From NCBI GenBank assembly GCA_003694545.1, contig RFKD01000051.1, positions 4,505-68,504 on the forward strand: a stretch of 64,000 nt of DNA, in the 5' to 3' direction. Made by a program: the position numbers and the translations under genes. The notes under the pieces were generated by a model. That model worked only from the letters and a program-made list of their open reading frames with translations. It did no database searches and was not told where the DNA came from. Positions 19,310 through 64,000 of this stretch are shown here, one piece after another (the stretch's first letter is position 1; the number at the start of each line of letters is the position of its first letter). This stretch comes from Candidatus Parcubacteria bacterium. Lineage in GTDB: Bacteria; Patescibacteriota; Minisyncoccia; Phycocordibacterales; UBA12088.

Positions 19310-19870
19310 TCAATATTGGCGGGATACGCCGCCTTGCCCCCCTGTGATAAGCCATTCTGATGATGCGTTGGGGTCATTCCAAGGCGAATCCATACAGGCA
19401 TCCCCTGAAGGACCAGCTGAAACCAACCCCCTCACGAGCAGCATATAGCGCGCTGGGCACCCCCAATAGGTGCCGTTCCACGCGTAGTAATGGGGAGTGT
19501 AGCCTTGAGGAAATTGAGGTATTTTAGGCAAAAAGGCAACATTGTTGGGATTTACCACCCTGCCACCCCCGATATCAACGCGGCCCTCCAAAAACCTCAT
19601 AAAACCATTGCCATTGGTAGGTGTATCCCAACAGCACGAGTTGCCCACATCGTAACCGCCTGTGGGGACAGGGTAAAATCCATACTCAGCATAAAACATC
19701 TCCAAAGCTTTTTGTAATTCGCGCAATGAAGCAAGCGCGTAGGCATCTCTTGCTTTTGCCCGGGCGCTGTTCACCGAGGCAAACACAATTGAAGAAAGCA
19801 ATCCAACAATCGCTATCACTACGAGAAGTTCTATGAGGGTGAATCCTGTGCTTTTCGTATGAATCGGCAT
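19310..19870 (-). CDS. type IV pilin-like protein (prepilin N-terminal methylation motif)
   Basis: GFTLIELLVVIAIVGLLSSIVFAS class III signal peptide immediately after a short leader. Start trimmed to MPIHTKST. Confidence 0.8.
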   Translation of the reverse strand: MPIHTKSTGFTLIELLVVIAIVGLLSSIVFASVNSARAKARDAYALASLRELQKALEMFYAEYGFYPVPTGGYDVGNSCCWDTPTNGNGFMRFLEGRVDIGGGRVVNPNNVAFLPKIPQFPQGYTPHYYAWNGTYWGCPARYMLLVRGLVSAGPSGDACMDSPWNDPNASSEWLITGGQGGVSRQY

Positions 19871-20329
19871 ATATGCGCTCATCATAACGACCACAGCGAA
19901 GCTGTCAACACACCGTCAGCAGGTCCGTTGCTTTGTGGCGGTAACGAAAAACAACTTTTGTTCTCCCTTTCACAAAGGCACGATTCTTGACCTGGAGTTT
20001 TGAAGTTTTGATATGTTGCAGGTTTTACGAGCTGGCGTCATAGATGTTTGAAGGTATGTTTCCCCATCTCCTTGATTTTGTGCAGAATACTGGAAAAATA
20101 GCTCAAAATGCCCCCGCCGCCGAGGTGGCGGTTGCTGGCTCGGTGCGTCCGGCTCAAACAATATCGAACTCGGCGAAACCGCTCCGCTGACAATATCAAA
20201 TTTTTGGCGGACTAGGTACGAGCGTGCCGAGCACACACAATTCTGTTCTGTTCTTTCAAAAAATAAGAGCCGCGTCACGAGGAATGCGGCTCGACTAGAG
20301 AACACTATTGCGTTTCTTCTTCGCGTTCG

Positions 20330-21387: not shown

Positions 21388-21458
21388 TGCGGGTAGGGGG
21401 AATTGAACCCCCGTCTCATCCATGGCAAGGATGCGTTCTACCACTAAACTATACCCGC
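21388..21458 (-). tRNA. tRNA-Gly (anticodon GCC)
   Basis: Reverse complement reads GCGGGTA TA GTTT AGTGGTA GAAC G CATCC TTGCCAT GGATG AGAC GGGGG TTCAATT CCCCC TACCCGC A. Clean cloverleaf, CCA not encoded. Confidence 0.9.
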
Positions 21459-22289: not shown

Positions 22290-22363
22290 CGGGGTGTGGT
22301 GTAATGGTAGCACGCATGCTTTGGGTGCATGTAGTCCGAGTTCGAGTCTCGGCACCCCGACCA
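22290..22363 (+). tRNA. tRNA-Pro (anticodon TGG), CCA encoded
   Basis: CGGGGTG TG GTGT AATGGTA GCAC G CATGC TTTGGGT GCATG TAGT CCGAG TTCGAGT CTCGG CACCCCG A CCA. The AT-rich island begins immediately downstream. Confidence 0.9.
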
Positions 22364-22485
22364 GATGCAACTTTTATTAATTCTGCGAGAAGATGTTTGC
22401 TCGCTCCGCCTCGCTAACGCTCGGCTCCGCTCGCATTTTTCCTTATATTTCGAGATTAAATCAAAGGGCTTTTGAAAATCAAAAA

Positions 22486-22782
22486 TCAGTTTTCTATCCA
22501 GCAGGCGGCGGTTCGTTCCAATTTTCCCGCAACAGATTTTATTTCATCAAAAGCGTCTGACGAAGCCAGTTCTTCAGCGTGATGAGCGGATAAAATCCAC
22601 TCTTTCAATGGTTCAATCCAATTGTTTCCCTTTCGCCCAAAATCAGCCTTTCTTTTGTTAAGGTCTGTTTTTGTTTTAATGAGCTCGTCTTTTTTGGCAA
22701 GATACGTTTCTTTTTCAATACTGCCGTCCAAAAAGGCGTTGACCAATCTATTCAACTTTTGCTGGGTTTCCTCTTGTCCCAA
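22486..22782 (-). pseudogene. 5'-truncated remnant of a large serine recombinase (C-terminal coiled-coil segment only)
   Basis: NRLVNAFLDGSIEKETYLAKKDELIKTKTDLNKRK resembles the C-terminal coiled-coil of large serine recombinases (..AYLDGxIsKEEYlxKKxELexexxeL..). There is no catalytic N-domain. It lies 120 nt from the tRNA-Pro 3' end. Confidence 0.4.
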
Positions 22783-22822
22783 TCTTCCCGTGCGCGGGCG
22801 ACAAAGTGGAACTCCCTATTTG

Positions 22823-22851
22823 TTGACTAAAGCAAAAATAATTCATATACT
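22823..22851 (+). promoter_or_regulatory. sigma70-like promoter for the XRE gene and the downstream defence operon (TTGACT-17 nt-TATACT)
   Basis: -35 TTGACT at 22823-22828, a 17-nt spacer, and -10 TATACT at 22846-22851, about 55 nt upstream of the XRE start. The region is AT-rich, so a chance match is possible. Confidence 0.35.
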
Positions 22852-22907
22852 ACCAATATAAGCAAGAACTTGAGTATACATAACTATATTAATAAAGTTT
22901 TATAATT

Positions 22908-23117
22908 ATGCCAAAGAGTAAAGCAACTATCGGCGAGAATATACGGAAGTACCGCCTGCAAAAAAATATGTCGCAAGACCGCCTGTCTAAATTGGCGGAT
23001 GTCGCTTTTCATACCATCGTCAAGATAGAATCCGGCGAGACGCCAAATCCTACAATAGAAACGGTCAGGAAAATCGCCGCCGCGCTTGGCGTGAGTATTG
23101 ATGATTTAATGAAGTAA
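22908..23117 (+). CDS. XRE-family helix-turn-helix transcriptional regulator (Cro/C1-type)
   Basis: IGENIRKYRLQKNMSQDRLSKLADVAFHTIVKIESGETPNPTIETVRKIAAALGVSIDDL, a canonical HTH_XRE. Its stop is 2 nt before the start of the next gene. Confidence 0.85.
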   Translation: MPKSKATIGENIRKYRLQKNMSQDRLSKLADVAFHTIVKIESGETPNPTIETVRKIAAALGVSIDDLMK

Positions 23118-23119
23118 CT

Positions 23120-26100
23120 ATGACGAACCATTCCGATCTCACATTTATCACAAACGAAGAAGGACAGAATCTCCTCGAGCGTTTCAGGGTGTTGATAAAA
23201 GACACCGAGTTCTTTGATGTCCTTGTAGGCTATTTCTATACCAGCGGCTTTTATACCCTATATAAATCATTGGAGAAAACTAAAAAAATCAGGATTCTTA
23301 TCGGCATCAGCACCAACCGGCAGACACTTGATCTGATAGAAAAGGCAGAGCAACAGGAGCTTACATTCTCCCATGCGGAGACGAAGGAACACTTTTCCAA
23401 TCTGCTTGCTGGAGAAATGGAGAGCGCGGAGGACAGCAGAAAAGTAGAAGAAGGGGTTACAAAGTTTATGGAGTGGTTGCAAAACGGAAAACTCGAAATC
23501 AGGGCGTATCCGACAGAAAATATCCACGCCAAGCTTTACATTATGACTTTTGTAGAGAGCGACAGAGACGTCGGGAGGGTCATCACAGGTTCAAGCAATT
23601 TTACCTACTCAGGCTTAGTGGAAAATCTTGAGTTCAATGTGGAGTTGAAAAACCGCGCTGATTATGAATTCGCCAAAGAAAGATTTGAGGAGCTTTGGAA
23701 AGAAGCTGTTGACGTCAGCGAAAAATACATTCAGACGATTCAGGAAAAAACCTGGCTCAACCCGAATGTAACCCCCTATGAGCTATACCTAAAATTTCTG
23801 TACGAATATTTTAAAGACGAGTTAAGCCAAACCGATGAAATGTTTTGTCGCTACTTACCCCACGACTTCAGGAAACTTGAATATCAGGAGCAAGCGGTTT
23901 TAAACGCCAAAAAAATCCTCGAGGAATACGGTGGTGTATTCATTTCGGATGTTGTGGGTTTGGGAAAGACTTACATTTCAGCCATGATCGCCGGTCAGCT
24001 TGACGGCAGAACGCTGGTCATCGCTCCGCCGGTTTTGCTTGACAAAACAAATCCCGGCTCATGGCCAAATGTGTTTTCCGATTTTCGGATTTCGGCGGAC
24101 TTTGAGTCCATTGGAAAATTAGACGATATCCTGCGCAGAGGAACAGAAAAATACAAGAACATTATTATAGATGAAGCCCATCGATTCCGCACGGAAACCA
24201 ACATCACCTACGAAAAATTAGCCGAAATCTGTCGAGGCAAGCGAGTGATTCTGGTCACAGCCACGCCGTACAACAATTCCCCAAAAGACATCTTAAGCCA
24301 GATAAAGCTGTTCCAAAAAGCAAGGAGAAGCACGATTCCCAATCTGCCTGATTTGGAAGGCTTCTTTGGAGGATTGGAGAGGAAGCTTAAAAAGCTCGAC
24401 AGGCAAAAAGATTACTCCGAATACATCAGAGTAGTTAAAGAGAATGCCAAAGAAATCCGCGAGAAGGTGCTCAAGTATTTGATGGTGCGTCGCACCAGAA
24501 CTGAAATCTTAAAATACTTTCCCGATGATTTGGCTAAGCAAAATCTCAAGTTTCCGGATGTCGATGATCCAATGCCGCTTTTTTACCAGCTTAATGAAGA
24601 AGAAGACAAAATATTCAACACAACCATAGAGATGATTACCAAAAAATTTACTTACGCTCGTTACACGCCACTTTTGCCAAAATACTATAAAGGTTCAATT
24701 GACCTTTTTGAGGAACAATCCCAGAAGAACATGGGTAAGTTCATGAAGATTCTTTTGGTGAAACGGCTTGAGAGCAGCTTCTTTGCTTTCAAGCAATCAA
24801 TTGGCCGCTTTATCTCCTCTTATGAGATGTTTATCAAAGAGTTCAAAAAGGGACATGTTTATATCAGTAAAAAATACGCGAACAAGATTTTTGAATATCT
24901 GGAAAATGATGATGACGAAGCCATCCAAAAGCTGATCGATGGGGGTAAAGCCGAAAGATACGACAGCGAGGATTTTACCGAAGACTTTATCAAAGATCTG
25001 GAAAGCGATCTCACTATATTGACCACTATCTTATCTCTCTGGCAAAACATTAAACGAGATCCCAAACTACTCACGTTCCTTGATGAACTTTCAAAAAATA
25101 AAATACTCCAAAATAAGCTCATCGTTTTTACCGAATCAAGAGAAACCGCCGAATATCTGGCAAGAAATATCAATAATAAATTTGGAGACATCACGCTTTG
25201 TTTTACTGGCAGATCAGAAGAAGCCACCCGCGATAAAGTGATCGATAATTTTGATGCAAAAGTGCGCCATCCCAAAGACGATTATCGCATTCTGGTTTCG
25301 ACCGAGGTCTTGTCAGAGGGCGTCAACCTGCATCGCTCCAATGTGGTCGTAAATTATGACATACCCTGGAATCCAACCCGCATGATGCAAAGGGTCGGAC
25401 GCATCAACAGGATCGATACGACGTTCGACAAAATCTATACTTTTAATTTTTTCCCAACCAAACAATCGAACGACCAGATCAAACTCAAAGAAGCGGCAGA
25501 GGCTAAAATCAATGCTTTTCTTACATTGCTAGGCGGCGATGCGGCGTTGTTAACTGAAGGCGAACCGGTTGACTCACATGAGCTTTTCAATCGGTTAATC
25601 TCCAAAAAGACCCTGATTGGCGAAGACGAAACCGAAGAAAGCGAGCTTAAGTATTTGCAAGTGATTAAAAATATTCGGGACAAAAACCCTGACCTATTTG
25701 AAAAAATCAAGCGTTTGCCCAAGAAAGTCCGGACAGCAAAAAAGGATGTTGGACATCGAGATTCACTGGTAACTTATTTCAGGCGTGGCAAGCTACAGAA
25801 ATTTTTTATAGCTGATCAAAGCTCGGTTGCCAGGGAACTTGATTTTATAAGTGCTGCACGTATACTCGCAAGTGCCAGTGATGATAAAAAACAAAAACTG
25901 CCGGAAAAGTTTTTTGACCTTCTGGATAAAAATAAAGAGGCTTTTCTTCGTGCCACTACCGAAGAGATGGTTGAACCCGTAAAAAAACGTGGTCATGACA
26001 GCGCCGCACAATTGCTCAAAATTCTCAAAGCTACAGTGGGGAACACACAACCGTTCACGGACGAGCAGGAGCAGTATATTAAACAGGTCATCGTCCAGTT

Positions 26101-26308
26101 GGAGGAAGGCGGTTTACCTAGGCAAACAGTCAAAGAAACCCTCAAGGCGCTGAATGAACTCAAGCAGGATTTAATTAACCCGTTTAAAGTGCTGGCTACA
26201 CTGCAAAGCCACATCCCCGAGCAATTTTTACGACAGCACTATGCAGAGCAGAATCCGCGTTCAGTCGGGAAAAGGGAAGTGATTCTATCAATGTATTTAA
26301 CAGGATAA
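23120..26308 (+). CDS. PLD-family (HKD) nuclease domain fused to an SNF2-family helicase (putative restriction / DNA-translocase subunit)
   Basis: N-terminal PLD-like region (KKIRILIGIST...NIHAKLYIMTF...VITGSSNFTYSGL: HxK...GSxN). SNF2 motifs I GLGKTYIS, II IIIDEAHRFR, III VILVTATPYNN, and helicase-C motifs LVSTEVLSEGVNL and NPTRMMQRVGRINR. Confidence 0.85.
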   Translation: MTNHSDLTFITNEEGQNLLERFRVLIKDTEFFDVLVGYFYTSGFYTLYKSLEKTKKIRILIGISTNRQTLDLIEKAEQQELTFSHAETKEHFSNLLAGEMESAEDSRKVEEGVTKFMEWLQNGKLEIRAYPTENIHAKLYIMTFVESDRDVGRVITGSSNFTYSGLVENLEFNVELKNRADYEFAKERFEELWKEAVDVSEKYIQTIQEKTWLNPNVTPYELYLKFLYEYFKDELSQTDEMFCRYLPHDFRKLEYQEQAVLNAKKILEEYGGVFISDVVGLGKTYISAMIAGQLDGRTLVIAPPVLLDKTNPGSWPNVFSDFRISADFESIGKLDDILRRGTEKYKNIIIDEAHRFRTETNITYEKLAEICRGKRVILVTATPYNNSPKDILSQIKLFQKARRSTIPNLPDLEGFFGGLERKLKKLDRQKDYSEYIRVVKENAKEIREKVLKYLMVRRTRTEILKYFPDDLAKQNLKFPDVDDPMPLFYQLNEEEDKIFNTTIEMITKKFTYARYTPLLPKYYKGSIDLFEEQSQKNMGKFMKILLVKRLESSFFAFKQSIGRFISSYEMFIKEFKKGHVYISKKYANKIFEYLENDDDEAIQKLIDGGKAERYDSEDFTEDFIKDLESDLTILTTILSLWQNIKRDPKLLTFLDELSKNKILQNKLIVFTESRETAEYLARNINNKFGDITLCFTGRSEEATRDKVIDNFDAKVRHPKDDYRILVSTEVLSEGVNLHRSNVVVNYDIPWNPTRMMQRVGRINRIDTTFDKIYTFNFFPTKQSNDQIKLKEAAEAKINAFLTLLGGDAALLTEGEPVDSHELFNRLISKKTLIGEDETEESELKYLQVIKNIRDKNPDLFEKIKRLPKKVRTAKKDVGHRDSLVTYFRRGKLQKFFIADQSSVARELDFISAARILASASDDKKQKLPEKFFDLLDKNKEAFLRATTEEMVEPVKKRGHDSAAQLLKILKATVGNTQPFTDEQEQYIKQVIVQLEEGGLPRQTVKETLKALNELKQDLINPFKVLATLQSHIPEQFLRQHYAEQNPRSVGKREVILSMYLTG

Positions 26309-26312
26309 TAAT

Positions 26313-29147
26313 ATGGACAGACAACAAGCTCAAAAGCTGATTAAAGAAACTTTTGAAAATCCTTTTGATAAAGGCAAATTTGCCCGTTTTATAAAAAATC
26401 TCCTTAACCGAGTTGAAGACGCCCCTTTCACGTACCAAGGCAATTATATCCCCGAAGCTTACCAACCTTACATCTCATCGTTGGAGCGTCTTTACAAATA
26501 TTCAGGCGGAGAACATAAGATTGACATACTTGTCGTTCAACTGAAAAAACAAACTTCGCTGGAACGCGCCCGTACCATGCAGCGCAATTTCATTGCCCGG
26601 TACTTAAACGGCAGCCGTGGCGGTGAAATGAAAGATGCCGCGCTGGTTGCCTTTGTTTCTCCTGGTGAAGTGGACTGGCGTTTTTCGCTGATTACAATGG
26701 ACTACCGTTTTGAAGAAACAAAAGACGGAAAAGTAAAAGTCAAAGAAGAATTTACTCCGGCAAGGCGCTGGTCGTTTCTGGTAGGAAGCAACGAAGCCAG
26801 CCACACCGCCCAGAGCCGACTGGTGAACATTCTCGTCGATGATGAGCACCATCCCACACTCCAGCAACTGGAAGAAGCCTTCAACATTGAAACTGTTACC
26901 AAAGAGTTCTTCATCAAATACCGCGAGATGTTTATCCGTACGAAGGAAGAACTGGATACAGTGGTGGCACGAGACGCCAAAATCAAAGCCGATTTTGATG
27001 CCAAAGGTATTGACACGGTCAACTTTGCCAAAAAGCTGCTCGGCCAAATCGTCTTTCTTTATTTTCTGCAAAAGAAAGGCTGGTTTGGCGTCAAGCGGGA
27101 CGCCAAATGGGGTACGGGCTCCAAACATTTTTTACGAGAACTTTTCGAAGGCAAATATGGCAGCTATAACAATTTTTTCAACGATATTCTTGAACCTCTC
27201 TTTTATGAAGCGTTGCGCATCGACCGCAGTCATGACGACCATTATTACAGCCGGTTCAATTGTAAGATTCCGTTTCTGAACGGAGGGCTGTTTGATCCTA
27301 TCGGCAATTACGACTGGGTACACACGGACATCAACATACCGAACGAGCTTTTTTCCAACACAGTAAAAACCAAAGAAGGCGATATTGGTAACGGTATTTT
27401 AGATATCTTTGACCGCTACAACTTTACGGTCAAGGAAGATGAGCCTTTGGAAAAAGAGGTCGCCATCGATCCGGAGCTTTTGGGTAAAACGTATGAAAAA
27501 TTCAACGCTATCCGTCCGGATAATTTTGAAGAATACAAGGCGGCTTTAAAGAGCGGGCAAAAGGGTGCTGAAAACAAGTTCAACAAGACATTTGGTGTTT
27601 ACTACACCCCGCGGGAAATCGTGCATTACATGTGCAAGCAGAGCCTGATTAATTATCTTTTCACTAAGGCGGAAGAAGAGGGGATTTCTAACGATATTAA
27701 AAAGCAAGACATCGAAGACCTGATCGAAATCGGCGAGATGATTACCGAACACGAGGCAACCGCTCTTAACAAAGAGGATAAAATTAGAAACGGCATCCAG
27801 AAATCCACGAAATACGAGAGGCTTTCATCCGACAGTATACGAAAAAATGCCAAAATCATAGATAACTGGCTGGCTGACATTACCGTGTGCGATCCGGCAG
27901 TGGGTTCCGGCGCCTTCCCGGTGGGCATGATGCATGAAATTGTCAAGGCTCGTAATCTCCTTTCCACATTTATTCAAGACCCTAACCGCACCATTTATAC
28001 CTTCAAACGCGAATGCATCGAAAAATCCCTCTATGGCGTGGACATCGACCCCGGCGCGGTGGAGATTGCCAAACTGCGGCTCTGGCTGTCGCTGGTGGTG
28101 GATGAGGATGATATCCGCCAGATCAAGCCTCTGCCGAATTTGGATTATAAAATTGTGTGCGGAAATTCGCTGCTGGGTGTGGAGAAGAATTTGTTTAATA
28201 ACCAACTGTTTGCCGAACTGGAACGACTGAAGCCGCTTTACTTTCATGAAACCAATCCCACAAAAAAGCAGGAATACAAAAAGGAGATTGATGACTTGAT
28301 TAGCCAAATTACCAACGGACATACGGAATTTGATTTTGAGGTCTATTTTTCCGAGGTGTTTCATAAGAAGGGCGGGTTTGATGTGGTGATTGGAAATCCG
28401 CCGTACATCCAACTTCAAAAAGCGATTGATGATAAGCAAAAATACGCTGATCTCTATAAAAATGCATGCTACGAGACTTTTGATAGGTGCGGAGATATTT
28501 ACTGCCTCTTTTATGAAAAAGGCATACACATTCTCCGACCCAATGGCGTTTTGTGTTTTATCACCAGCAATAAATGGATGCGGGCAGGCTACGGCAAATC
28601 TCTCCGAAGATTTTTCCTCAAGCATAATCCCAGACTTTTGATTGATTTAGGTCCCGGCGTTTTTGAAAGCGCGACCGTGGATACCAATATTCTCATAATG
28701 CAAAAATCCGAGGAAAAACCCGCCCCGGTGTGTCTCGATGCTGTTACCTTAACTGAAGAGGCAAAAGAATCGGACATTGCTTTGTATATTAAGAAGAACA
28801 GAAAACGCTTGACGGCTCTGAGCGAGAATGCTTGGTTTATTGGCAGCGCTGCTGAACAGCAACTCAAAGAAAAAATCGAACGCATAGGTAAACCACTGAA
28901 AGATTGGGATGTGAATATTTATTATGGTATTAAAACCGGCCTAAACGAAGCCTTTATCATCACTACTGAAAAGCGTAATGAAATACTAGCAAACTGCAAA
29001 GATGAAGAAGAAAGAAAACGCACCGAAGCCATCATCAAACCTATTTTACGAGGCAGAGATATCAAGCGATATTATCAAGCGATATTATTACGAATGGGCA
29101 GGGTTTTGGGTGATAGTAATTCCAGCAGGCTGGACAAATGTAAATAA
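26313..29147 (+). CDS. gamma-class N6-adenine DNA methyltransferase (Eco57I/PglX/type IIG-like), interrupted near its C-terminus by a frameshift
   Basis: FGVYYTPREIVHYMCKQSL (motif X), CDPAVGSGAFPVG (motif I), VIGNPPYIQLQ (motif IV NPPY), and a long N-terminal domain typical of PglX/type IIG enzymes. The reading frame ends KPILRGRDIKRYYQAILLRMG... just after the ILRGRDIKRY TaqI_C hallmark. Confidence 0.85.
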   Translation: MDRQQAQKLIKETFENPFDKGKFARFIKNLLNRVEDAPFTYQGNYIPEAYQPYISSLERLYKYSGGEHKIDILVVQLKKQTSLERARTMQRNFIARYLNGSRGGEMKDAALVAFVSPGEVDWRFSLITMDYRFEETKDGKVKVKEEFTPARRWSFLVGSNEASHTAQSRLVNILVDDEHHPTLQQLEEAFNIETVTKEFFIKYREMFIRTKEELDTVVARDAKIKADFDAKGIDTVNFAKKLLGQIVFLYFLQKKGWFGVKRDAKWGTGSKHFLRELFEGKYGSYNNFFNDILEPLFYEALRIDRSHDDHYYSRFNCKIPFLNGGLFDPIGNYDWVHTDINIPNELFSNTVKTKEGDIGNGILDIFDRYNFTVKEDEPLEKEVAIDPELLGKTYEKFNAIRPDNFEEYKAALKSGQKGAENKFNKTFGVYYTPREIVHYMCKQSLINYLFTKAEEEGISNDIKKQDIEDLIEIGEMITEHEATALNKEDKIRNGIQKSTKYERLSSDSIRKNAKIIDNWLADITVCDPAVGSGAFPVGMMHEIVKARNLLSTFIQDPNRTIYTFKRECIEKSLYGVDIDPGAVEIAKLRLWLSLVVDEDDIRQIKPLPNLDYKIVCGNSLLGVEKNLFNNQLFAELERLKPLYFHETNPTKKQEYKKEIDDLISQITNGHTEFDFEVYFSEVFHKKGGFDVVIGNPPYIQLQKAIDDKQKYADLYKNACYETFDRCGDIYCLFYEKGIHILRPNGVLCFITSNKWMRAGYGKSLRRFFLKHNPRLLIDLGPGVFESATVDTNILIMQKSEEKPAPVCLDAVTLTEEAKESDIALYIKKNRKRLTALSENAWFIGSAAEQQLKEKIERIGKPLKDWDVNIYYGIKTGLNEAFIITTEKRNEILANCKDEEERKRTEAIIKPILRGRDIKRYYQAILLRMGRVLGDSNSSRLDKCK

Positions 29148-29718
29148 AGGTGAAGTCACCGCAGAAAAATTTATAAACATGAAGTTTCCTGCATTAATGC
29201 AGTATTTGAAAATATATGAAGAAAAAGCCAGAAAACGCGATGATCAAGGTGATTATTGGTGGGAATTACGCCATTGTGCCTACTACCCCGAATTTGAGAA
29301 AGAGAAGGTGGTGTGGAGTGATATTGCCTCAGAACCAACTGTTACCGTTTTACCTAAGGGATTATATTTCAATAATACCGTTTACATGGTTTCTTCAAGA
29401 ACCCCACGCTATTTTGCCGGTATTTTAAATTCTCGCGTGATAAAATGGTATTTCTCTAAAATAGCAACGGATCTAGGAGAAAAAGGTCGGCGCTTTTTTA
29501 AAATCTTTGTTGAGGTTATGCCTTTGATACCCATCACCCCTGCCAACCAGCCCATTGTTCAGCAAATAGAGGCATTGGTAGATAAAATCCTTGCAGAAAA
29601 GAAACAAAACCCGCAAGCAGACACCAAAGAATACGAACACCAGATTGACCAGCTCGTCTATAAACTCTACGATCTGACACCGGAGGAAATTAAGATTGTG
29701 GAAAATTCACGATCGTGA
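29002..29718 (+). CDS. C-terminal TaqI_C-like target-recognition segment of the methyltransferase, in the +1 frame (continuation after the 13-bp duplication)
   Basis: The +1 frame gives DIIKRYYYEWAGFWVIVIPAGWTNV...WWELRHCAYYPEF...YFAGILNSRVIKWYF, which matches the TaqI_C / type IIG specificity-domain pattern (WxELR..YY, LNS.v..wy). Confidence 0.7.
   Translation: MKKKENAPKPSSNLFYEAEISSDIIKRYYYEWAGFWVIVIPAGWTNVNKGEVTAEKFINMKFPALMQYLKIYEEKARKRDDQGDYWWELRHCAYYPEFEKEKVVWSDIASEPTVTVLPKGLYFNNTVYMVSSRTPRYFAGILNSRVIKWYFSKIATDLGEKGRRFFKIFVEVMPLIPITPANQPIVQQIEALVDKILAEKKQNPQADTKEYEHQIDQLVYKLYDLTPEEIKIVENSRS
29064..29089 (+). repeat. perfect 13-bp tandem duplication (caagcgatattat x2) causing a +1 frameshift inside the methyltransferase
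   Basis: Read directly from the sequence: 29064-29076 equals 29077-29089. Removing one copy restores ...ILRGRDIKRYYYEWAGFWVIVIPAGW..., the expected TaqI_C continuation. Confidence 0.9.
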
Positions 29719-31967
29719 ATATGATCACTCGCGTAATAAAAATTAAAAACTGTGCGTCATTTGTTGATTTTGTACCGGGTGCCGACCTGCCGGCATTTAG
29801 GAAATACAACTTAATTTACGGATGGAATGGATCGGGTAAAACCAATTTTTCACGAGTATTACGTTCTTTTGAATTACGGGAAAATTATTATGCTGACTTG
29901 AATAATCCAACAGAATTTGAATTTCAACTTGATAATGGTACAGCAATAAGTCAACAAGATTTAACGGTTTTCCCAAATATTCGAGTGTTTAACAAGGATT
30001 TTATCAATGAGAGCGTTTTTTGTACCGGCGGACCAAAGCCGATTTTCTTTCTGAGTAAAGAAAGTAAGGAAGACCAAGAAAAAATCATGCAACTAGGGAA
30101 TCAATTACGGAAATTGAGAGAAGATTTAGATTTTAAAAGAGCACTCCTTGATAAAGCTAAAATAAGAAAAGAAAAAATGCTTTCTGATAAAGCGCGTGAT
30201 ATTAAAACCGCTCTCACAACATCTCGTAGTGATAAGTACAGAAATTATGAACGGCCAAATCTAGAAAAAGCAATTCAGGACAACGTGAATGAACTTAAAA
30301 GCAATGTCGATAAATATAAATTGGCAGGGGATAGAGTTGCCATTCTCCAAAAGACAATACAACAAACGACTAAGCCAAAAGTTGAATCTTTGGCATTCCC
30401 AGATTTTGATATTTCTGAAACTGTAAGTGAGGTAAAAAAAGTTTTACAGACTACTGTTACTTCTCATATTATTGAGAGTCTTAAATTGGATGAGATGCTG
30501 AATAAGTGGGTAGAGCATGGGCTTTCTATTCACAAGGAAAGAGGGCTGAAAAATTGCGCTTTTTGTAATCAAGTAATCCCGCATCATAGATTTTCGGAAC
30601 TAGAACAACACTTTAACGATGATTACCAAAGGCTTATTGAGGAGCTGAGTAGCTTAAAGCAAACACTTGAAGGTAAAAAAATTTCAATTTCTTTTCCAGA
30701 CGCTTCAAGTTTTTATGACGATTTAATAGAAGAGTATTTAAACGCCAAAAAAGAAGCTGAAGAAATAGTTAAGAAATTTAATCAAAACATAGATTCTCTT
30801 ATTTCTGCTCTTGTGCAGAAGGAGCAAAGGCCATTTTCAAAAGTAGATTTAGAAGAATGGAAACAAGTTGAAATAAGGCCATTTGAAAATATAAACATTA
30901 TTATTTCAAAGCATAACGAAAGGTCAGACAATTTTGATAAACAAATAGATGAAAGTAAACACATTTTAGAGATGCACTATATTGCAGATTTTATCCATTC
31001 TTATTTTGAACAGATGGATGAAATAGAAAAACTAGAGAAAGAAGTTTCGGAATTAGAGAATGAAATAAAAACTAACGAGACGAAAGAAAACGAGTTAAAA
31101 AACTCACTCATAAGTCATCGCATTCCCGCTAATCGGATTAACGAAGACTTGAAGCATTTTTTGGGACGTGATGATATTCGCCTAGTTGCTACCGATAAGG
31201 AGGAAGGTTATCAGATTTTCCGTAACGGAACGCTTGCAAAAGATTTAAGCGAGGCCGAAAAAACTGCATTGGCGCTCGTATATTTTCTGACAAAAATACA
31301 CGAGAAAGGGTTTGACTTGAAAAATGGTGTGATTGTTATGGATGATCCGGTTTCAAGCTTTGATTCTAATTCAATTTTTCAAGCATTTGGGTTTATCAAA
31401 GAGTCAATCAAAGAGGCAAAACAGATTTTTATTTTGACACATCACTTTGACTTTTTTAGACAAGTGAAAAATTGGTTTTCGTATTACAAGGAAGATGAAC
31501 GAGAATTCTTTATGATGGTATGCGGCAAAGAAGATTCAGTGAGAAAGTCCCGAATTGCAACAATCGACAAATTACTGATTGGCTATGAATCCGAATACCA
31601 CTTTTTGTTTAGCATTTTGTACAGATTTGCGAAAAATAATGAAGTACAATTGGAAAACGCATATCCAATTCCAAATATTGCGCGTAAATTTCTTGAGAGT
31701 TTTTTGGCTTTCAGAGTACCTGTTTTAGCAAACGGACGACAAAAAGAGCCGAACTTGTACCATAGATTGGAAAAAATTGATTTTGATAAAAAAAAGAAGG
31801 AACGTATTCTCCGGTTTATTGAAACTCACTCCCATCCGCGATACGAGTCTGGAGTACAAGATTTTGACATGACTATTTTGGGAGAGACGAAAGAAATCGT
31901 GAATGATTTACTTGCTTTAGTAGAGCACGAAGACAAAAAACACTTTGAATTTTTAGTGAAAAGTTAG
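29715..31967 (+). CDS. RloC/PrrC-like AAA_13 family ATPase (restriction-linked anticodon-nuclease-type protein) with coiled-coil CxxC zinc-hook
   Basis: Walker A NLIYGWNGSGKTNFSRVL at the N-terminus. A roughly 400-aa K/E-rich coiled-coil contains NCAFCNQVIPHH (CxxC). ABC-signature-like LSEAEKTALALVYFL, Walker B/D-loop VIVMDDPVSSFDSNS, H-loop IFILTHHFDF, and a C-terminal R/E/H-rich segment (KKERILRFIETHSHPRYE). GTG at 29715 overlaps the upstream stop (GTGA); an alternative ATG is at 29721. Confidence 0.75.
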   Translation: MNMITRVIKIKNCASFVDFVPGADLPAFRKYNLIYGWNGSGKTNFSRVLRSFELRENYYADLNNPTEFEFQLDNGTAISQQDLTVFPNIRVFNKDFINESVFCTGGPKPIFFLSKESKEDQEKIMQLGNQLRKLREDLDFKRALLDKAKIRKEKMLSDKARDIKTALTTSRSDKYRNYERPNLEKAIQDNVNELKSNVDKYKLAGDRVAILQKTIQQTTKPKVESLAFPDFDISETVSEVKKVLQTTVTSHIIESLKLDEMLNKWVEHGLSIHKERGLKNCAFCNQVIPHHRFSELEQHFNDDYQRLIEELSSLKQTLEGKKISISFPDASSFYDDLIEEYLNAKKEAEEIVKKFNQNIDSLISALVQKEQRPFSKVDLEEWKQVEIRPFENINIIISKHNERSDNFDKQIDESKHILEMHYIADFIHSYFEQMDEIEKLEKEVSELENEIKTNETKENELKNSLISHRIPANRINEDLKHFLGRDDIRLVATDKEEGYQIFRNGTLAKDLSEAEKTALALVYFLTKIHEKGFDLKNGVIVMDDPVSSFDSNSIFQAFGFIKESIKEAKQIFILTHHFDFFRQVKNWFSYYKEDEREFFMMVCGKEDSVRKSRIATIDKLLIGYESEYHFLFSILYRFAKNNEVQLENAYPIPNIARKFLESFLAFRVPVLANGRQKEPNLYHRLEKIDFDKKKKERILRFIETHSHPRYESGVQDFDMTILGETKEIVNDLLALVEHEDKKHFEFLVKS

Positions 31968-32416
31968 TGGAAAGTGTTACCCAACTCGTTTGAGAATCTT
32001 TTTAAGAGTTTCTGTTGTCTCCCGAAAACCCGGGCGAAGCCCGAAGGCGAGTGGGCAAAAAGAAAAGGGGGAATGGGGGAAATGAATTTTTGCCTGCTCG
32101 CCAATACCGCGCCGCAGGCGCGGCAGGGGTGGGAAGCGGCTCGTCTCTGCTCAAGCCAGAGAAACAAAGCCCGCAAAGCGCGTTTCCTTAATTGAAAAAG
32201 AGTTTTGCGCGCGCCCGTTAAAAGAAAAAGAAATTGTTGCGTGCTTTACTTGCCGCCGTCAGGCGGCGAGCCGCTGGGCGGGTTCTGCGCCCGTCAGGGC
32301 GCAGATTGTCGCTCAAAGAAAGTTCGAGCGGCGTTCAGTAATTGCGACTAAGGGAATGAAAGAGAGGTGTTGCAAGTATTGCTTTATTCACTCTTCACAA
32401 CAGGGGGGTCAAACGG

Positions 32417-59837: not shown

Positions 59838-61160
59838 TTACGTGCTTTGGGCGGCACTTTTGGATTCCTCGGCCTCTCCCTTCTCATTCAGCGTCTTGCT
59901 TGCCAATTGAGAAGGTGCTTGCGATGTTTGGGGCGAGGCGGTTTCTTTGGGCTGTTCGTTTGATTTGGGAGTTGCCTCCTCTCCTTGTTGCGCCGTCTCA
60001 TTGGCAGGCGCAAGCGAGTTGACCAGATCGGAAAGCTCGGGTGACAGCACTTCTTTCATGTTTGCTCCTTCCGCTGGTTTTATGTCTATTTTCCAGCCGG
60101 TCAGCTTGGCGGCAAGGCGGACATTTTGCCCGCCACGGCCGATCGCAAGCGAAAGTTGGTCTTCGCTCACGGTTACATGGGCTATGCGGTTTTCCTCATC
60201 AAGGGCGATGTCCATCACACGCGCCGGCTGGAGCGCCTCTTCAATAAAGTAAGCGGGGTCGTCGCTCCACTCCACAACATCGATTTTCTCTCCGCCCAGC
60301 TCGCTGATGACCACGGAAACCCGCACGCCCCGACTGCCCACGAGGGAACCGACCGGGTCGATGTGTTCGTCAAACGAAACTGCGGCAACCTTGGAGCGGC
60401 TCCCTGGTTCGCGGGCAATTGCGCGGATAGCCACTGTTCCGTTGCGCAACTCAGGAACCTCCTGTTCGAACAATTTTGCCAAGAAGCGCGGGTGTGCCCG
60501 GGAAAGCCGCAGGTAAATGCCCCGCGGGCTTTCGTCCACTTTCATTAAAAGAGCGCGAATGCGCTCGCTCGGGCGGAAGCGTTCCCCGGGAATTTGTTCT
60601 TCACGCGGCAAGACGCCAGTTGCCTTGCCGAGCTCAACAAACACCACACCGCGCTCAACGCGCTGAACAGTGCCAGTGACTATTTCGCCTTCTTTGCTTG
60701 CGAATTCAGCAAACACCGATTCGCGCTCTGCCTCGCGAATTTTTTGGATGATGACTTGCTTTGCGGTTTGGGCAGCAATGCGGCCAAACGACTCTTTGGT
60801 TTCCAAAGGGAACAGGATTTCATCTCCCGGCTGCGCCTCGCGTTTAATGTGCCGCGCGTCTTCCACGAGAATGTGTTGCTCGGGGATAAAGCGGATTTTT
60901 TCTTCCTGAAGCGACTCTTCCTCTTCCGGCATACGGACTTCGTCGGGCGACACGACCTTTTTGACTTGCACGAATTCCACATCGCCTGTCTCGGCGTTGA
61001 AAAACGCGCGCACAACCTGCCCGCGGCTGCCATACTCTTTCTTGTACGCAGTTGCCAGCGCCGCTTCAATAGCAGCCAAGGTGCGGTCGCGCGGGATACC
61101 GCGCTCGGCTTCTAACTGCTCAACAACGGCGTTGAGCACTTTCATGTCGAATAAAGGCAT
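59838..61160 (-). CDS. nusA: transcription termination/antitermination factor NusA
   Basis: N-terminal RNAP-binding domain (MKVLNAVVEQLEAERGIPRD), an S1 domain, two KH domains (..GRGGQNVRLAAKLTGWKIDI), and an acidic C-terminal tail. Confidence 0.9.
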   Translation of the reverse strand: MPLFDMKVLNAVVEQLEAERGIPRDRTLAAIEAALATAYKKEYGSRGQVVRAFFNAETGDVEFVQVKKVVSPDEVRMPEEEESLQEEKIRFIPEQHILVEDARHIKREAQPGDEILFPLETKESFGRIAAQTAKQVIIQKIREAERESVFAEFASKEGEIVTGTVQRVERGVVFVELGKATGVLPREEQIPGERFRPSERIRALLMKVDESPRGIYLRLSRAHPRFLAKLFEQEVPELRNGTVAIRAIAREPGSRSKVAAVSFDEHIDPVGSLVGSRGVRVSVVISELGGEKIDVVEWSDDPAYFIEEALQPARVMDIALDEENRIAHVTVSEDQLSLAIGRGGQNVRLAAKLTGWKIDIKPAEGANMKEVLSPELSDLVNSLAPANETAQQGEEATPKSNEQPKETASPQTSQAPSQLASKTLNEKGEAEESKSAAQST

Positions 61161-61463
61161 ACGTAATGATTTAATTTATTATGTTGATGGTTAATGTGTT
61201 GTCTCGGTGTGTTCCGTAGTGACCGTTGTCGAGAATAAAGTGTGTTGGTTATGTGTGGCGCTAGAGAAGTTTCCTGTTAATTATTGGGTTACCGTGGGGC
61301 ATCTTGTCTGCGGCAGTATGGGTCGAGTTTTGCGGTGTGCTTAGCGCGGAGGAAAACTTTCCTCGTTTGCCAACTTTCGCGTTGTGCCCGTCGCGACACC
61401 CGTGCGCGGCATTATACCGCACTTGCTGTTGATACACAAGGCGCTTAAGGAAGCGCTATAATA

Positions 61464-64000
61464 ATGGCAATGGCGCAAAGACCAAAAATGCCGCACGGCG
61501 GCCATGCGGCAGAAGAAGAGGCGCGCTATCTCCACGCGGAACTCGCAAAGCGCGCAAAGGCACTCGAAGGTGCTTCGCCGGAAGCGATCACGCGAATGGA
61601 GCGGGAGGTTGTCGAGCAGTACCGCGCCACGCCGCACCACCGCACTCCCGCCACCCAACCCGCGCTTTCCCATGAAGAGATAGAAGCTCAGCGGGCAATC
61701 GTGCTTGCCATTCCTCCGGATAGGCATGATGAGGTCATTTCGTCCCTCGTTGACATAATGCTCACAAAAGGCATCAAAAATATGTTAACGGTTGCGGAGC
61801 GTTCTGGTCCACACATTCTTGATGACGCGCACCGTTTTCTGGTCGCGTATCTCAAAGCGGGCTACCCCGTGTATGGCTTGCGCGAGCGTGATCCAATGCA
61901 ACGGACGCTAAGAATGACCTTGTATGAAGTGCGTGTTGCGACCGCACTGCCGGAAGAGGAAAAAGCTGCGGATGCGGTGCTCGCGAAAATGATGCAGCTG
62001 TACGCCGGTCTTCTTGCCTTGTACGACGAAAAGGAACAAATGGGGCATAGCGTCCTTGAAATCGCCGTACCCGAGGACGCGGATACCATCGGCTTTTACA
62101 TTGCCGTTCCAACGGCGCAAAAGAACGCGTTTGAAAAGATGCTCTCCTCCTTGTTTCCTCACGCAGTGTTTGAAGAAGTTCCGGGCGATTACAATCCTTT
62201 TTCCGAAAAGGGCGGGGTTGCGGTTTTGGAAGGGAGCCTCAAAGCTCCCTGGGTGCTTCCCATTGCAACATACGAAGACATTAAAGGGGATCCCTTGCGC
62301 GTTTTGTTAGAATCGTTCACGCGGCTTGAGCGGCAGGGAGTTGGTGCCGCGCTGCAGGTTACCGTCGCACCGGCGCCAGAAGATGCGCTTACCTGCGCCG
62401 TGAAAACCCTTGAGAAGTTGGATGAAGGAGAGACGCTCCAAAGCGCGTTTCGAGAAGTCTCGCGCGGGACGCTCACAAACGTGATTGTGGAAATTGGGAG
62501 GGCCCTTAAGGATTTAGCGTTTTCTCAAGAAGACAACGAGAACCACGACGCGAAGAAACCCAAAGAGCGCAATCCCGCGGTTCGTGAACTCATCCAAAAA
62601 AAGATTAAGACGCCTTTGGTTTCCGTGGGGGTGCGCATTATCGCGTCGGCTGACGACGCGGCCACAGCAACTTCTGCCGCCCGGGACATAGTCGCGGCCT
62701 TTAGCCAGTTTGCTAACCCGCTCGGCAATCGATTTGCGTTTGAGCCGGTATCGCTCCGTCGCCAAGCGGAAGTTGTGCGGGCATTTGTGCTGCGCTCGCG
62801 CATTCCATCACGGGAAATGGTTCTTTCTTTAGAGGAGCTTGCCTCCGTCATTCACATACCGTTTGACGCGAAGGCGGTTCCCGAATCAATGCGGCAGAGT
62901 CGATCCCGGGAAGCTTCCTTGCCACAAGGTGTTCCCACGCAAGGCGTTTTGTTGGGGGAGCATATCTACCAAGGCGTGCGCACCCCTGTTGCCATGCTGC
63001 CGCAAGATCGCTTGCGGCACCTGTATGTTATCGGCCAAACCGGCACCGGTAAGACTTCGCTCCTCAAGAACCTTATCGTGCAGGATATTCGCAACGGCGA
63101 GGGGGTGTGTTTTATCGATCCTCACGGCGTGGATGTGGACGAAGTACTCTCGCAAGTGCCGCCAGAGCGGTATGATGATGTGATTTACTTTGACCCCGCC
63201 AACACTGCGTATCCATTCGGCTTGAATATGATGGAGTACGACCCGTCGCGCCCGGAAGAAAAAACGTTTGTCGTCAACGAGCTTCTGTCTATCTTTAAAA
63301 AGTTGTACTCCCATGTCCCCGAGAGTATGGGCCCGGCATTTGAGCAATACTTCCGCAACGCCGCCTTGCTCGTGATGGAAGACCCGGAAACTGGGATGAC
63401 GCTCCTTGATATCGCACGCGTGTTTGCCGATGAGGTGTATCGAGAACTGAAACTGCGTCGGTGTAAAAACCCGACGGTGGCGCAGTTTTGGCGGGACATC
63501 GCGCTGAAGGCGACGGGAGAAATGGGGTTGCAAAACTACGCGCCCTACATCACCAACAAAATTGATGTGTTCACCACGAACGACATTATGCGCCCCATCA
63601 TCGCGCAGGAGCGTTCCTCGATCCGCTTTAATGAAATTATGGACACACGCAAGATCCTTCTCGTGAACCTTTCTAAAGGGCGACTTGGCGATATCAACGC
63701 GCACCTTATCGGCTTGGTGCTTGTTGGGAAGTTTTTGATGGCGGCGCTCGCGCGCACCGGCCGGGGCGACTACCCTCCGTTTTACTTGTATTTGGATGAG
63801 TTTCAAAATGTGACGACGGACTCCATCAGCGTTATCCTATCGGAGGCGCGCAAATACAAGCTCGCGCTCATTCTCGCGCACCAATTCTTAAAACAACTTG
63901 ACGACCCCATCCGCAACGCGGTATTTGGCAATGTTGGCTCTATGGTTGCGTTCCGTATTGGCACCCACGACGCGCAGGAACTCGAGCCTTTGTTCGCGCC
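61464..64000 (+). CDS. VirD4/TraG/TraD-like type IV secretion coupling-protein-type ATPase (3'-partial; runs off the window end)
   Basis: Manual translation from the ATG at 61464 gives an uninterrupted frame to 64000. It has Walker A YVIGQTGTGKTSLLKNLI, CFIDPHGVD, and Walker B FYLYLDEFQNV, with an N-terminal soluble domain of about 400 aa. It is not in the supplied ORF table because no stop codon occurs. Confidence 0.7.
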   Translation, partial: MAMAQRPKMPHGGHAAEEEARYLHAELAKRAKALEGASPEAITRMEREVVEQYRATPHHRTPATQPALSHEEIEAQRAIVLAIPPDRHDEVISSLVDIMLTKGIKNMLTVAERSGPHILDDAHRFLVAYLKAGYPVYGLRERDPMQRTLRMTLYEVRVATALPEEEKAADAVLAKMMQLYAGLLALYDEKEQMGHSVLEIAVPEDADTIGFYIAVPTAQKNAFEKMLSSLFPHAVFEEVPGDYNPFSEKGGVAVLEGSLKAPWVLPIATYEDIKGDPLRVLLESFTRLERQGVGAALQVTVAPAPEDALTCAVKTLEKLDEGETLQSAFREVSRGTLTNVIVEIGRALKDLAFSQEDNENHDAKKPKERNPAVRELIQKKIKTPLVSVGVRIIASADDAATATSAARDIVAAFSQFANPLGNRFAFEPVSLRRQAEVVRAFVLRSRIPSREMVLSLEELASVIHIPFDAKAVPESMRQSRSREASLPQGVPTQGVLLGEHIYQGVRTPVAMLPQDRLRHLYVIGQTGTGKTSLLKNLIVQDIRNGEGVCFIDPHGVDVDEVLSQVPPERYDDVIYFDPANTAYPFGLNMMEYDPSRPEEKTFVVNELLSIFKKLYSHVPESMGPAFEQYFRNAALLVMEDPETGMTLLDIARVFADEVYRELKLRRCKNPTVAQFWRDIALKATGEMGLQNYAPYITNKIDVFTTNDIMRPIIAQERSSIRFNEIMDTRKILLVNLSKGRLGDINAHLIGLVLVGKFLMAALARTGRGDYPPFYLYLDEFQNVTTDSISVILSEARKYKLALILAHQFLKQLDDPIRNAVFGNVGSMVAFRIGTHDAQELEPLFA

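Follow-up and report, generated by a model that had tools for sequence, protein, structure and literature searches.

The right-hand edge of a 64,000-nt stretch of Candidatus Parcubacteria bacterium DNA (assembly GCA_003694545.1, contig RFKD01000051.1, positions 4,505 to 68,504; the whole stretch is called the window below) cuts through a gene for a P-loop ATPase of the DUF8128 family. The identity of its product as a soluble ATPase found in many lineages of the ultra-small bacteria of the candidate phyla radiation (CPR), combining a VirB4-like architecture with a motor resembling that of coupling proteins, is well supported. The function favoured here, with roughly even chances of being right, is that this ~936-938-aa cytoplasmic motor serves as the docking and energising ATPase of a membrane machine encoded elsewhere, the likeliest being the CPR type IV secretion system (T4SS). 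This role is preferred because a plasmid homologue occupies the position of a coupling protein, the N-terminal half resembles the docking module of VirB4, and a membrane-anchored paralogue exists. The original prediction, made from the letters of the window, saw in the same frame a VirD4/TraG-like coupling ATPase and expected a conjugative, DNA-uptake or secretion apparatus, or another mobile region, to begin just beyond the edge; the superfamily was named correctly, and the expected surroundings proved to be different.

The frame runs without a stop from the ATG at 61464 to the end of the window, as had been claimed, and its translation comprises 845 codons (residues are numbered from this ATG throughout). 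Such a length lies far beyond chance, since about 4% of random codons are stops and the corresponding probability is ~1e-15. Its omission from the open reading frame (ORF) table, also pointed out at the time, has a single cause, namely that the frame runs off the window end. Contig L001 is 99.9% identical to window positions 60535-64000, differing at 3 of 3466 nt, and represents effectively the same genome; according to it, the gene ends ~280 nt past the window and the full product, P0001, has 938 aa, or 936 aa if counted from the second in-frame ATG. The parts of the gene that lie within the window are as follows.

61464-64000, plus strand: DUF8128-ATPase gene, 5' 90%, encoding a soluble VirB4/VirD4-like P-loop ATPase; completed via L001.
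61503-61856, plus strand: helical N-terminal extension, aa ~14-131, six helices (AF2 structural models).
61881-62873, plus strand: alpha/beta core of DUF8128 (aa ~140-470), folded like the N-terminal domain of VirB4 (TrwK).
62931-64000, plus strand: P-loop ATPase domain, aa ~490-880, with the window edge at aa 845.
63033-63056, plus strand: Walker A, GQTGTGKT, aa 524-531, invariant in 27 homologues.
63783-63800, plus strand: Walker B, YLYLDE, aa 774-779, followed by invariant F780 and Q781; invariant in 27 homologues.

All three motifs named in the original prediction are present in the translation: the Walker A segment YVIGQTGTGKTSLLKNLI at aa 521-538, the CFIDPHGVD box at aa 549-557 and the Walker B segment FYLYLDEFQNV at aa 773-783, in which D778 and E779 correspond to nt 63795-63800. 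In an alignment of 27 homologues reaching down to 28% identity, G524, T526, G527, G529, K530, D552, P553, H554 and G555 do not vary, and neither do D778, E779, Q781, R796, K797 and Q807. Judging by this conservation, the ATPase should be catalytically competent.

A word-indexed protein search retrieved P0001 together with 28 further homologues. Precomputed annotation assigns Pfam PF26449 (DUF8128) to P0001 and to 27 of the 28 others, the exception being the most distant one, P0029. DUF8128 was not met with in the literature searched, and a cluster look-up yielded only entries named "hypothetical protein". At the fold level the protein is organised like VirB4, with an N-terminal domain of that type ahead of a C-terminal ATPase. 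In its fold the N-terminal half corresponds to the VirB4 N-terminal domain, not to HerA, and it is preceded by the helical extension, which carries the conserved motif KGIxN...PHxxDDFHRxLVxY. The C-terminal half contains an FtsK/HerA-type nucleotide-binding domain with Walker A and B that superposes on TrwB; TrwB is among the top structural matches (357 of 420 TrwB residues align), with HerA and DndH nearly equal. In the model an all-helical insertion at aa ~599-727 separates Walker A from Walker B; VirB4 C-terminal domains likewise bear a helical insertion. A short C-terminal helical tail follows the ATPase domain.

The protein is cytoplasmic and devoid of a transmembrane (TM) anchor. The Kyte-Doolittle maximum over 19 residues reaches 1.33 in the first 400 residues, and the only segment exceeding 1.6, at residues 744-762, lies within the ATPase core; an N-terminal TM anchor is absent in all 20 members of the orthologue group. 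This sets the protein apart from VirD4, TraG and TraD, which have an N-terminal membrane anchor, usually of two TM helices. A soluble coupling protein nevertheless has a precedent, because the coupling protein TraJ of pIP501 is proposed to be anchored through a separate small protein, TraI (PMC12857230).

The N-terminal half, used as query in an exhaustive HMMER run, retrieved 651 cluster representatives. Of the 59 that are 700 aa or longer, 58 carry Walker A, so that DUF8128 occurs practically only in fusion with this ATPase. The 59 proteins fall into two classes. The soluble class comprises 41 proteins with a median length of 917 aa and Walker A near residue 518; the anchored class comprises 18 proteins with one N-terminal TM helix, a median length of 806 aa and Walker A near residue 409. 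Only the soluble class has the helical extension, which stands where the anchored class has its TM helix. In layout the anchored paralogues appear similar to VirB3-VirB4 fusions, and they too are located amid housekeeping genes (gyrB-gyrA, ribosomal protein genes). As a separate observation, the anchored-paralogue loci (L007 9554-16485, L091 575-6680 and L090 5923-10536) include a mini-cluster of membrane and secreted proteins conserved in L007 and L091, in which a gene for a ~140-aa proline-rich protein lies upstream and convergent genes encode a 185-190-aa tail-anchored and a 495-637-aa N-terminal-TM protein, followed by gyrB-gyrA; apart from PKD domains in one protein, nothing in this mini-cluster has a Pfam assignment.

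Sequence profiles place the motor nearest to coupling proteins, at a considerable distance. Searched with the 27-homologue profile, PDB sequences give TrwB (1.5e-6) and DotL (9e-4) and no VirB4. Among NCBIfam models the best affinities are to SXT TraD (E 4e-12, 45 bits against a cut-off of 366), TOL TraD (E 5e-8, 32 bits against 648) and CD1115 VirD4-like (E 2e-5, 23 bits against 250). Pfam TrwB_AAD_bind is the only T4SS or DUF87 profile to exceed its cut-off (22.4 bits, the gathering score being 20.5; residues 511-555, profile positions 9-53 of 387). TraG-D_C stays below its own (19.7 bits against 22), as does DUF87 (23.0 bits against 23.2, residues 498-555 only); T4SS-DNA_transf was not reported for the ATPase and is merely "faint" in the precomputed matches on homologues. 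All these matches are weak and restricted to the P-loop region or to a 43-residue stretch, and the curated thresholds of the coupling families PF02534, PF12696, TIGR03743, TIGR03754, TIGR02759 and NF045973 are not reached. The proposed profile search thus bore out the label of a VirD4/TraG-like ATPase at the level of the superfamily; the sub-threshold scores, the missing TM anchor and the additional ~470-residue N-terminal region, which resembles the VirB4 N-terminal domain and has no counterpart in VirD4, TrwB or TraD, do not fit a classical member.

With VirB4, TrwK and TraC the protein shares the two-domain layout of an N-terminal alpha/beta domain and a C-terminal ATPase, but no significant sequence similarity. 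NCBIfam VirB4 families score more poorly than the TraD and VirD4-like ones (E 0.004-0.02; TIGR00929 VirB4_CagE 13.2 bits against 643, NF045975 14.8 against 590), and when the family profile is aligned by hhalign with a VirB4-like ATPase from a Bacillus plasmid, the probability is 0.8%. A divergent VirB4 orthologue was consequently rejected on sequence, from the NCBIfam, PDB-profile and hhalign comparisons, despite the VirB4-like fold and architecture. Nor does the gene lie beside VirB3-, VirB6- or VirB8-like genes: none occurs among the neighbour clusters, where divergent VirB3-like proteins could evade detection.

The most informative relative outside CPR is WP_121549396.1, an 886-aa protein without a TM segment, annotated as "DUF87 domain-containing protein" and encoded by a 24.7-kb Bacillus subtilis plasmid (NZ_CP032854.1). 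It matches by BLASTP with E 3e-37 over residues 377-883, and in tblastn against a CPR locus its residues 47-712 are covered. Its gene is directly upstream of those for a replication-relaxation (relaxase-like) protein, TcpE, a VirB4-like ATPase and conjugal transfer proteins, and is thereby in the coupling-protein position. The profile affinity to VirD4, TrwB, TraD and DotL is thus accompanied by a second likeness, a plasmid relative adjoining a relaxase-like gene, and the same plasmid holds both this relative and a separate VirB4-like ATPase, which is a further difference from VirB4. Relatives of the ATPase half occur in 273 plasmid records from Bacillus, Streptomyces, Staphylococcus, Clostridium, Sulfolobus, haloarchaea and a few proteobacteria. 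The closest of them (35% identity) is encoded on the non-mobilizable megaplasmid p131_1 of Bradyrhizobium sp. 131 (L088 8044-10170). This 708-aa protein, labelled "T4SS DNA-binding domain", is flanked by CHAT-domain and TPR proteins, with no T4SS around it, and may belong to a defence or signalling cluster instead of a T4SS.

The family also extends to phages. The phage family phrog_5156, whose function is unannotated, matches with E 1e-74 over residues 203-912, and tblastn finds members of this type in SPO1-like Bacillus phages and in phage G (gp156). These proteins of ~900 aa have the same layout of a DUF8128-like module and an ATPase, and one of them, amid hypothetical genes, is annotated "VirD4 component-like". 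For both WP_121549396.1 and phrog_5156, homology takes in the entire ATPase and the end of the N-terminal module, at ~25% identity; the helical N-terminal extension of the CPR proteins is not aligned, the plasmid match beginning at residue 377 and the phage match at residue 203. These relatives reside on mobile replicons and in lytic phages, whereas the CPR copies are chromosomal. One phage locus is the following.

L092 4050-6770: relative of the ATPase in Bacillus phage SP8.

The epibiotic life of CPR depends on envelope machines, a type IV pilus and a monoderm-type T4SS. In S. epibionticum, the one genetically tractable species, both machines are essential, the T4SS cluster has no recognisable coupling protein or relaxase, and competence is ComEC-dependent (Wang et al. 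2023, PMC10633639). According to Quinonero-Coronel et al. 2025 (PMC12102498), VirB4 is encoded in 2,417 of 3,035 (80%) Patescibacteria genomes, and 5,713 homologues of VirD4-type coupling proteins (T4CPs) occur in 2,918 of the 3,035 (96%), about two per genome, 148 of them near virB4; these thousands of homologues have no assigned role there, and the authors suggest exaptation, which "cannot be ruled out". The DUF8128 ATPase is probably one of these T4CP homologues located far from virB4. The latter are likewise CPR-wide and rarely near virB4, and their number of about two per genome matches the soluble and anchored DUF8128 subfamilies. If the two sets coincide, the orphan homologues would possess a VirB4-like docking domain, soluble and anchored forms and a fixed position among housekeeping genes. 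The VirB4-like module, the soluble/anchored dichotomy and the housekeeping synteny were not found in the literature searched, and the consulted parts of PMC12102498 make no mention of them.

In the favoured scenario, the DUF8128 ATPase, presumably ring-forming, would hydrolyse ATP as an oligomer, and its VirB4-like N-terminal module would dock onto a membrane partner within a machine that spans the envelope and is encoded elsewhere. The chromosomal monoderm-type T4SS of CPR is the best candidate for that machine; the ATPase would energise it or feed it with substrate, taking over from a coupling protein of the classical membrane-anchored type. In the lineage of the window, the gene has come to head a pilB-pilC-pilin operon. 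Such a scheme provides testable hypotheses on what energises and feeds the CPR T4SS.

Several observations weigh against it. T4SS genes were sought within 10 kb on either side in 87 related CPR loci and none was detected, so genomic context lends the partnership no support. The same architecture occurs in lytic phages that have no T4SS (SPO1-like phages and phage G), and 215 of the 273 relative-bearing plasmids are predicted to be non-mobilizable. In PMC12102498, T4CP homologues are commoner in CPR than VirB4, and the S. epibionticum homologue is non-essential although the T4SS is essential; together these two facts indicate at least partial independence from the T4SS.

It is tempting to extend the scheme and to regard DUF8128 ATPases as a third lineage of T4SS-type ATPases, in which a VirB4 docking domain is joined to a coupling-like motor. 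They would then represent a surviving link from VirB4 to VirD4 as well as the "missing" coupling or energising ATPase of the essential, relaxase-less T4SS of Patescibacteria, with paralogues serving different substrates or machines, including a physical or regulatory link to the pilus in the present lineage. This extension, attractive as a possible evolutionary bridge between VirB4 and VirD4, is improbable.

The chromosomal setting was surveyed by scanning one genome per species, which gave more than 600 matching stretches, and by inspecting the context of the best 80 of these. All 80 are Patescibacteria metagenome-assembled genomes save one labelled Bdellovibrionales, many of them on contigs of 0.1-0.8 Mb. 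Clustering of four genes on each side in 83 loci with a complete target ORF reveals recurrent neighbours: upstream, methionine aminopeptidase (map, 28 loci), adenylate kinase (adk, 17) and SecY (8); downstream, nucleoside-diphosphate kinase (ndk, 26), an RNase J-like beta-CASP protein (rnj, 20) and L20 (rplT, 8). All large neighbours with a Walker A motif are housekeeping proteins (UvrB, FtsH, FtsK, Pif1, SMC, IF-2, UvrA and ABC-F). The GC content of the ATPase gene is at genome level. Queries with the Bacillus plasmid relaxase, VirB4-like ATPase, TcpE and conjugal transfer proteins found nothing by tblastn in the 87 CPR loci and the window. Because the gene has native GC and housekeeping synteny, with no conjugation genes in the loci surveyed, it is a vertically inherited chromosomal gene, neither conjugative cargo nor the edge of a mobile region. 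A separate feature of this synteny is a ~133-aa multi-TM protein without a Pfam match, encoded 2-4 genes downstream in 15 of the 83 loci (e.g., L034 13566-13967); it might act as a membrane partner, or else be in synteny without any functional relation.

A canonical VirD4/TraG coupling protein, marking a conjugative element, a T4SS locus or a mobile region past the window, could account for the weak TrwB_AAD_bind, TraG-D_C and TraD matches, for TrwB as a top structural match and for the Bacillus plasmid relative beside a relaxase. Against it stand the absent anchor, the native GC, the housekeeping synteny in the 80 other species, the lack of matches to the Bacillus relaxase, VirB4, TcpE and conjugation proteins in any CPR locus, where the gene is linked to neither relaxase nor mating-pair formation genes, and the extended contig itself. 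Extension had been proposed as the way to find VirB4 or a relaxase downstream; neither was seen in L001-L003, and L001 shows pilus genes instead. This makes a canonical coupling protein extremely unlikely, and a conjugative or mobile region was rejected on the contig extension and the context survey. With its DUF-type ATPase matches and its distance from T4SS genes, the gene largely has the character of an isolated one, next to which pilus genes happen to lie in this lineage. For annotation, the message is that no conjugative element or mobile region begins at this edge of the window.

The synteny itself raises a more serious competitor, a housekeeping translocase or remodeller of nucleic acids acting in repair, recombination, DNA clearing or segregation, unrelated to secretion and exapted from a T4SS ATPase ancestor. 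The fixed spot after a ribosomal-protein/secY-adk-map cluster and before ndk and the RNase J-like gene, seen in 26-28 of 83 loci, speaks for such a function, as do an occurrence wider than that of VirB4 and the dispensability of the S. epibionticum homologue for epibiotic growth (both from PMC12102498), relatives in lytic phages and non-mobilizable plasmids, and near-equal structural matches to HerA and DndH. Conversely, the same genomes encode canonical FtsK, no NurA, Sir2 or DUF4297 partner is adjacent, synteny in reduced genomes is weak functional evidence, and the VirB4-like module and the TM-anchored paralogue point to a role at a membrane machine. The possibility that the protein substitutes for FtsK was rejected, since these loci also contain a canonical FtsK, complete with its alpha, motor and gamma domains. 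A secretion-independent motor stays a serious rival because genomic linkage is lacking, the distribution exceeds that of VirB4, the S. epibionticum homologue is dispensable and lytic phages carry the same architecture; it is nonetheless considered unlikely, and clearly less probable than partnership with the T4SS.

In the lineage of the window the gene has a different neighbourhood, which extends on both sides of it.

59838-61160, minus strand: nusA, divergent neighbour; lineage-specific context.
61433-61462, plus strand: promoter-like site, TACACA (-35-like)-18 nt-TATAAT (-10), 10 of 12 consensus matches; predicted function.
L001 3776-7255 (~64310-67789 in window-equivalent numbering, past the edge), plus strand: pilB-pilC-pilin-like operon, gaps of 29, 5 and 4 nt.

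The divergence from nusA noted at the outset holds, the minus-strand gene being 83% identical to an orthologue with NusA_N, S1 and KH_NusA Pfam domains; nusA is nearby in none of the 80 other species. An Rfam scan of the 303-nt nusA intergenic region detected no RNA element. The TATAAT hexamer reported just before the ATG is indeed found at 61457-61462, as part of the promoter-like site; a consensus scan counts 2 such sites against 0.4 +/- 0.7 in shuffled sequence. In-frame ATGs are located at 61464 and 61470, and the true start is probably 61470, because an 82%-identical orthologue starts at its counterpart and both genomes keep a -10-like hexamer 7-8 nt before the second ATG (TATAAT here, TATACT in the orthologue). 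The spacing of this hexamer suggests a start geometry that would fit a leaderless mRNA.

Downstream on the same strand, L001 encodes a PilB-type ATPase (594 aa; T2SSE 414 bits, MshEN 51 bits), a PilC-type platform protein (405 aa; T2SSF 199 bits) and a protein with a pilin-like hydrophobic N-terminus, which in L003 extends into a CarboxypepD_reg-like domain. The ATPase gene lies 29-43 nt 5' of pilB-pilC-pilin on the same strand in the window/L001, L002 and L003; in L001 the gap of 29 nt contains a strong Shine-Dalgarno sequence and neither a terminator-like nor a promoter-like site was detected in it. The 82%-identical orthologue has the identical order of divergent nusA, ATPase gene, pilB, pilC and pilin-like gene. 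In this lineage the ATPase gene is probably co-transcribed with pilB-pilC-pilin. The forecast of a DNA-uptake or secretion apparatus just past the edge therefore came true as a pilus operon 29 nt on, but not as T4SS genes. A further pilin-like ORF is encoded within the window itself at 19310-19894 on the minus strand, ~42 kb from the operon beyond the edge; it is 194 aa long and has the prepilin methylation motif GFTLIELLVV (Pfam N_methyl E 7e-8).

Such proximity invites the idea of an accessory motor working with PilB-PilC in the type IV pilus or in DNA uptake, either hauling or relaying DNA along a pilus-ComEC route or energising pilus-linked export. The idea draws on the lineage-specific operon arrangement, with its short, signal-free same-strand spacing in L001, L002 and L003, and would agree with the natural competence of CPR and its reliance on type IV pili (PMC10633639). 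The archaeal DNA-import ATPases CedB and CedD are among the weak NCBIfam matches. Beyond this lineage the adjacency dissolves: pilB/pilC lie within 10 kb in only 1 of the 80 other species (L009, ~3.6 kb away), which, compared with a roughly estimated chance expectation of 2-5% for genomes <1 Mb, indicates no enrichment of pilus genes, and it is map, adk, ndk and rnj that recur beside the gene. Placement at the head of a pilus operon is thus a peculiarity of the lineage, and linkage to pilus genes as a general property of the family was rejected. The protein itself has no T2SSE match in the Pfam scan and is not a pilus ATPase; no type IV pilus or Com system is known to work with a VirB4/VirD4-type ATPase. 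A pilus motor appears rather improbable, less so than a pure defence function and more so than either a housekeeping translocase or the favoured T4SS-associated motor.

Defence against phages is the last function that the ATPase fold brings to mind, in the form of an NTPase of the mad8 (MADS), HerA or DndH/DptH type. PADLOC reports mad8 with E 3e-15 over residues 518-819 and weaker HerA and DndH matches, and an apparent defence island is present elsewhere in the window. The likeness does not reach beyond the common ATPase fold, on which the case for defence is built. MADS is an eight-gene operon, mad1-mad8 (bioRxiv 10.1101/2023.03.30.534895), and mad8 lies within it, whereas the DUF8128 ATPase has no mad1-7 neighbours; the nuclease, Sir2 and dnd/dpt partners of HerA and DndH(DptH) are not adjacent either. 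HerA has a HAS-barrel N-terminal domain, which is absent here, the VirB4-like half standing in its place. Native GC and conserved synteny in a core-gene context are the opposite of the patchy pattern of defence islands. A defence gene of the mad8, HerA or DndH type was rejected on these grounds, and such a role is very unlikely.

The island in question is unrelated in position to the ATPase gene. It spans window positions 22400-32000, where GC falls to 0.34-0.45 against a genome level of ~0.56, and tRNAs at 21388-21458 (minus strand) and 22290-22360 (plus strand) mark its left edge; Rfam finds only 4 tRNAs in the whole window. Three large genes are encoded in it.

23120-26308, plus strand: PLD-nuclease/SNF2-type helicase, 1062 aa.
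26313-29147, plus strand: Eco57I/MmeI-type N6 DNA methylase, 944 aa.
29715-31967, plus strand: AAA_13 ATPase (479 bits), 750 aa.

This segment looks like a horizontally acquired restriction or defence island.

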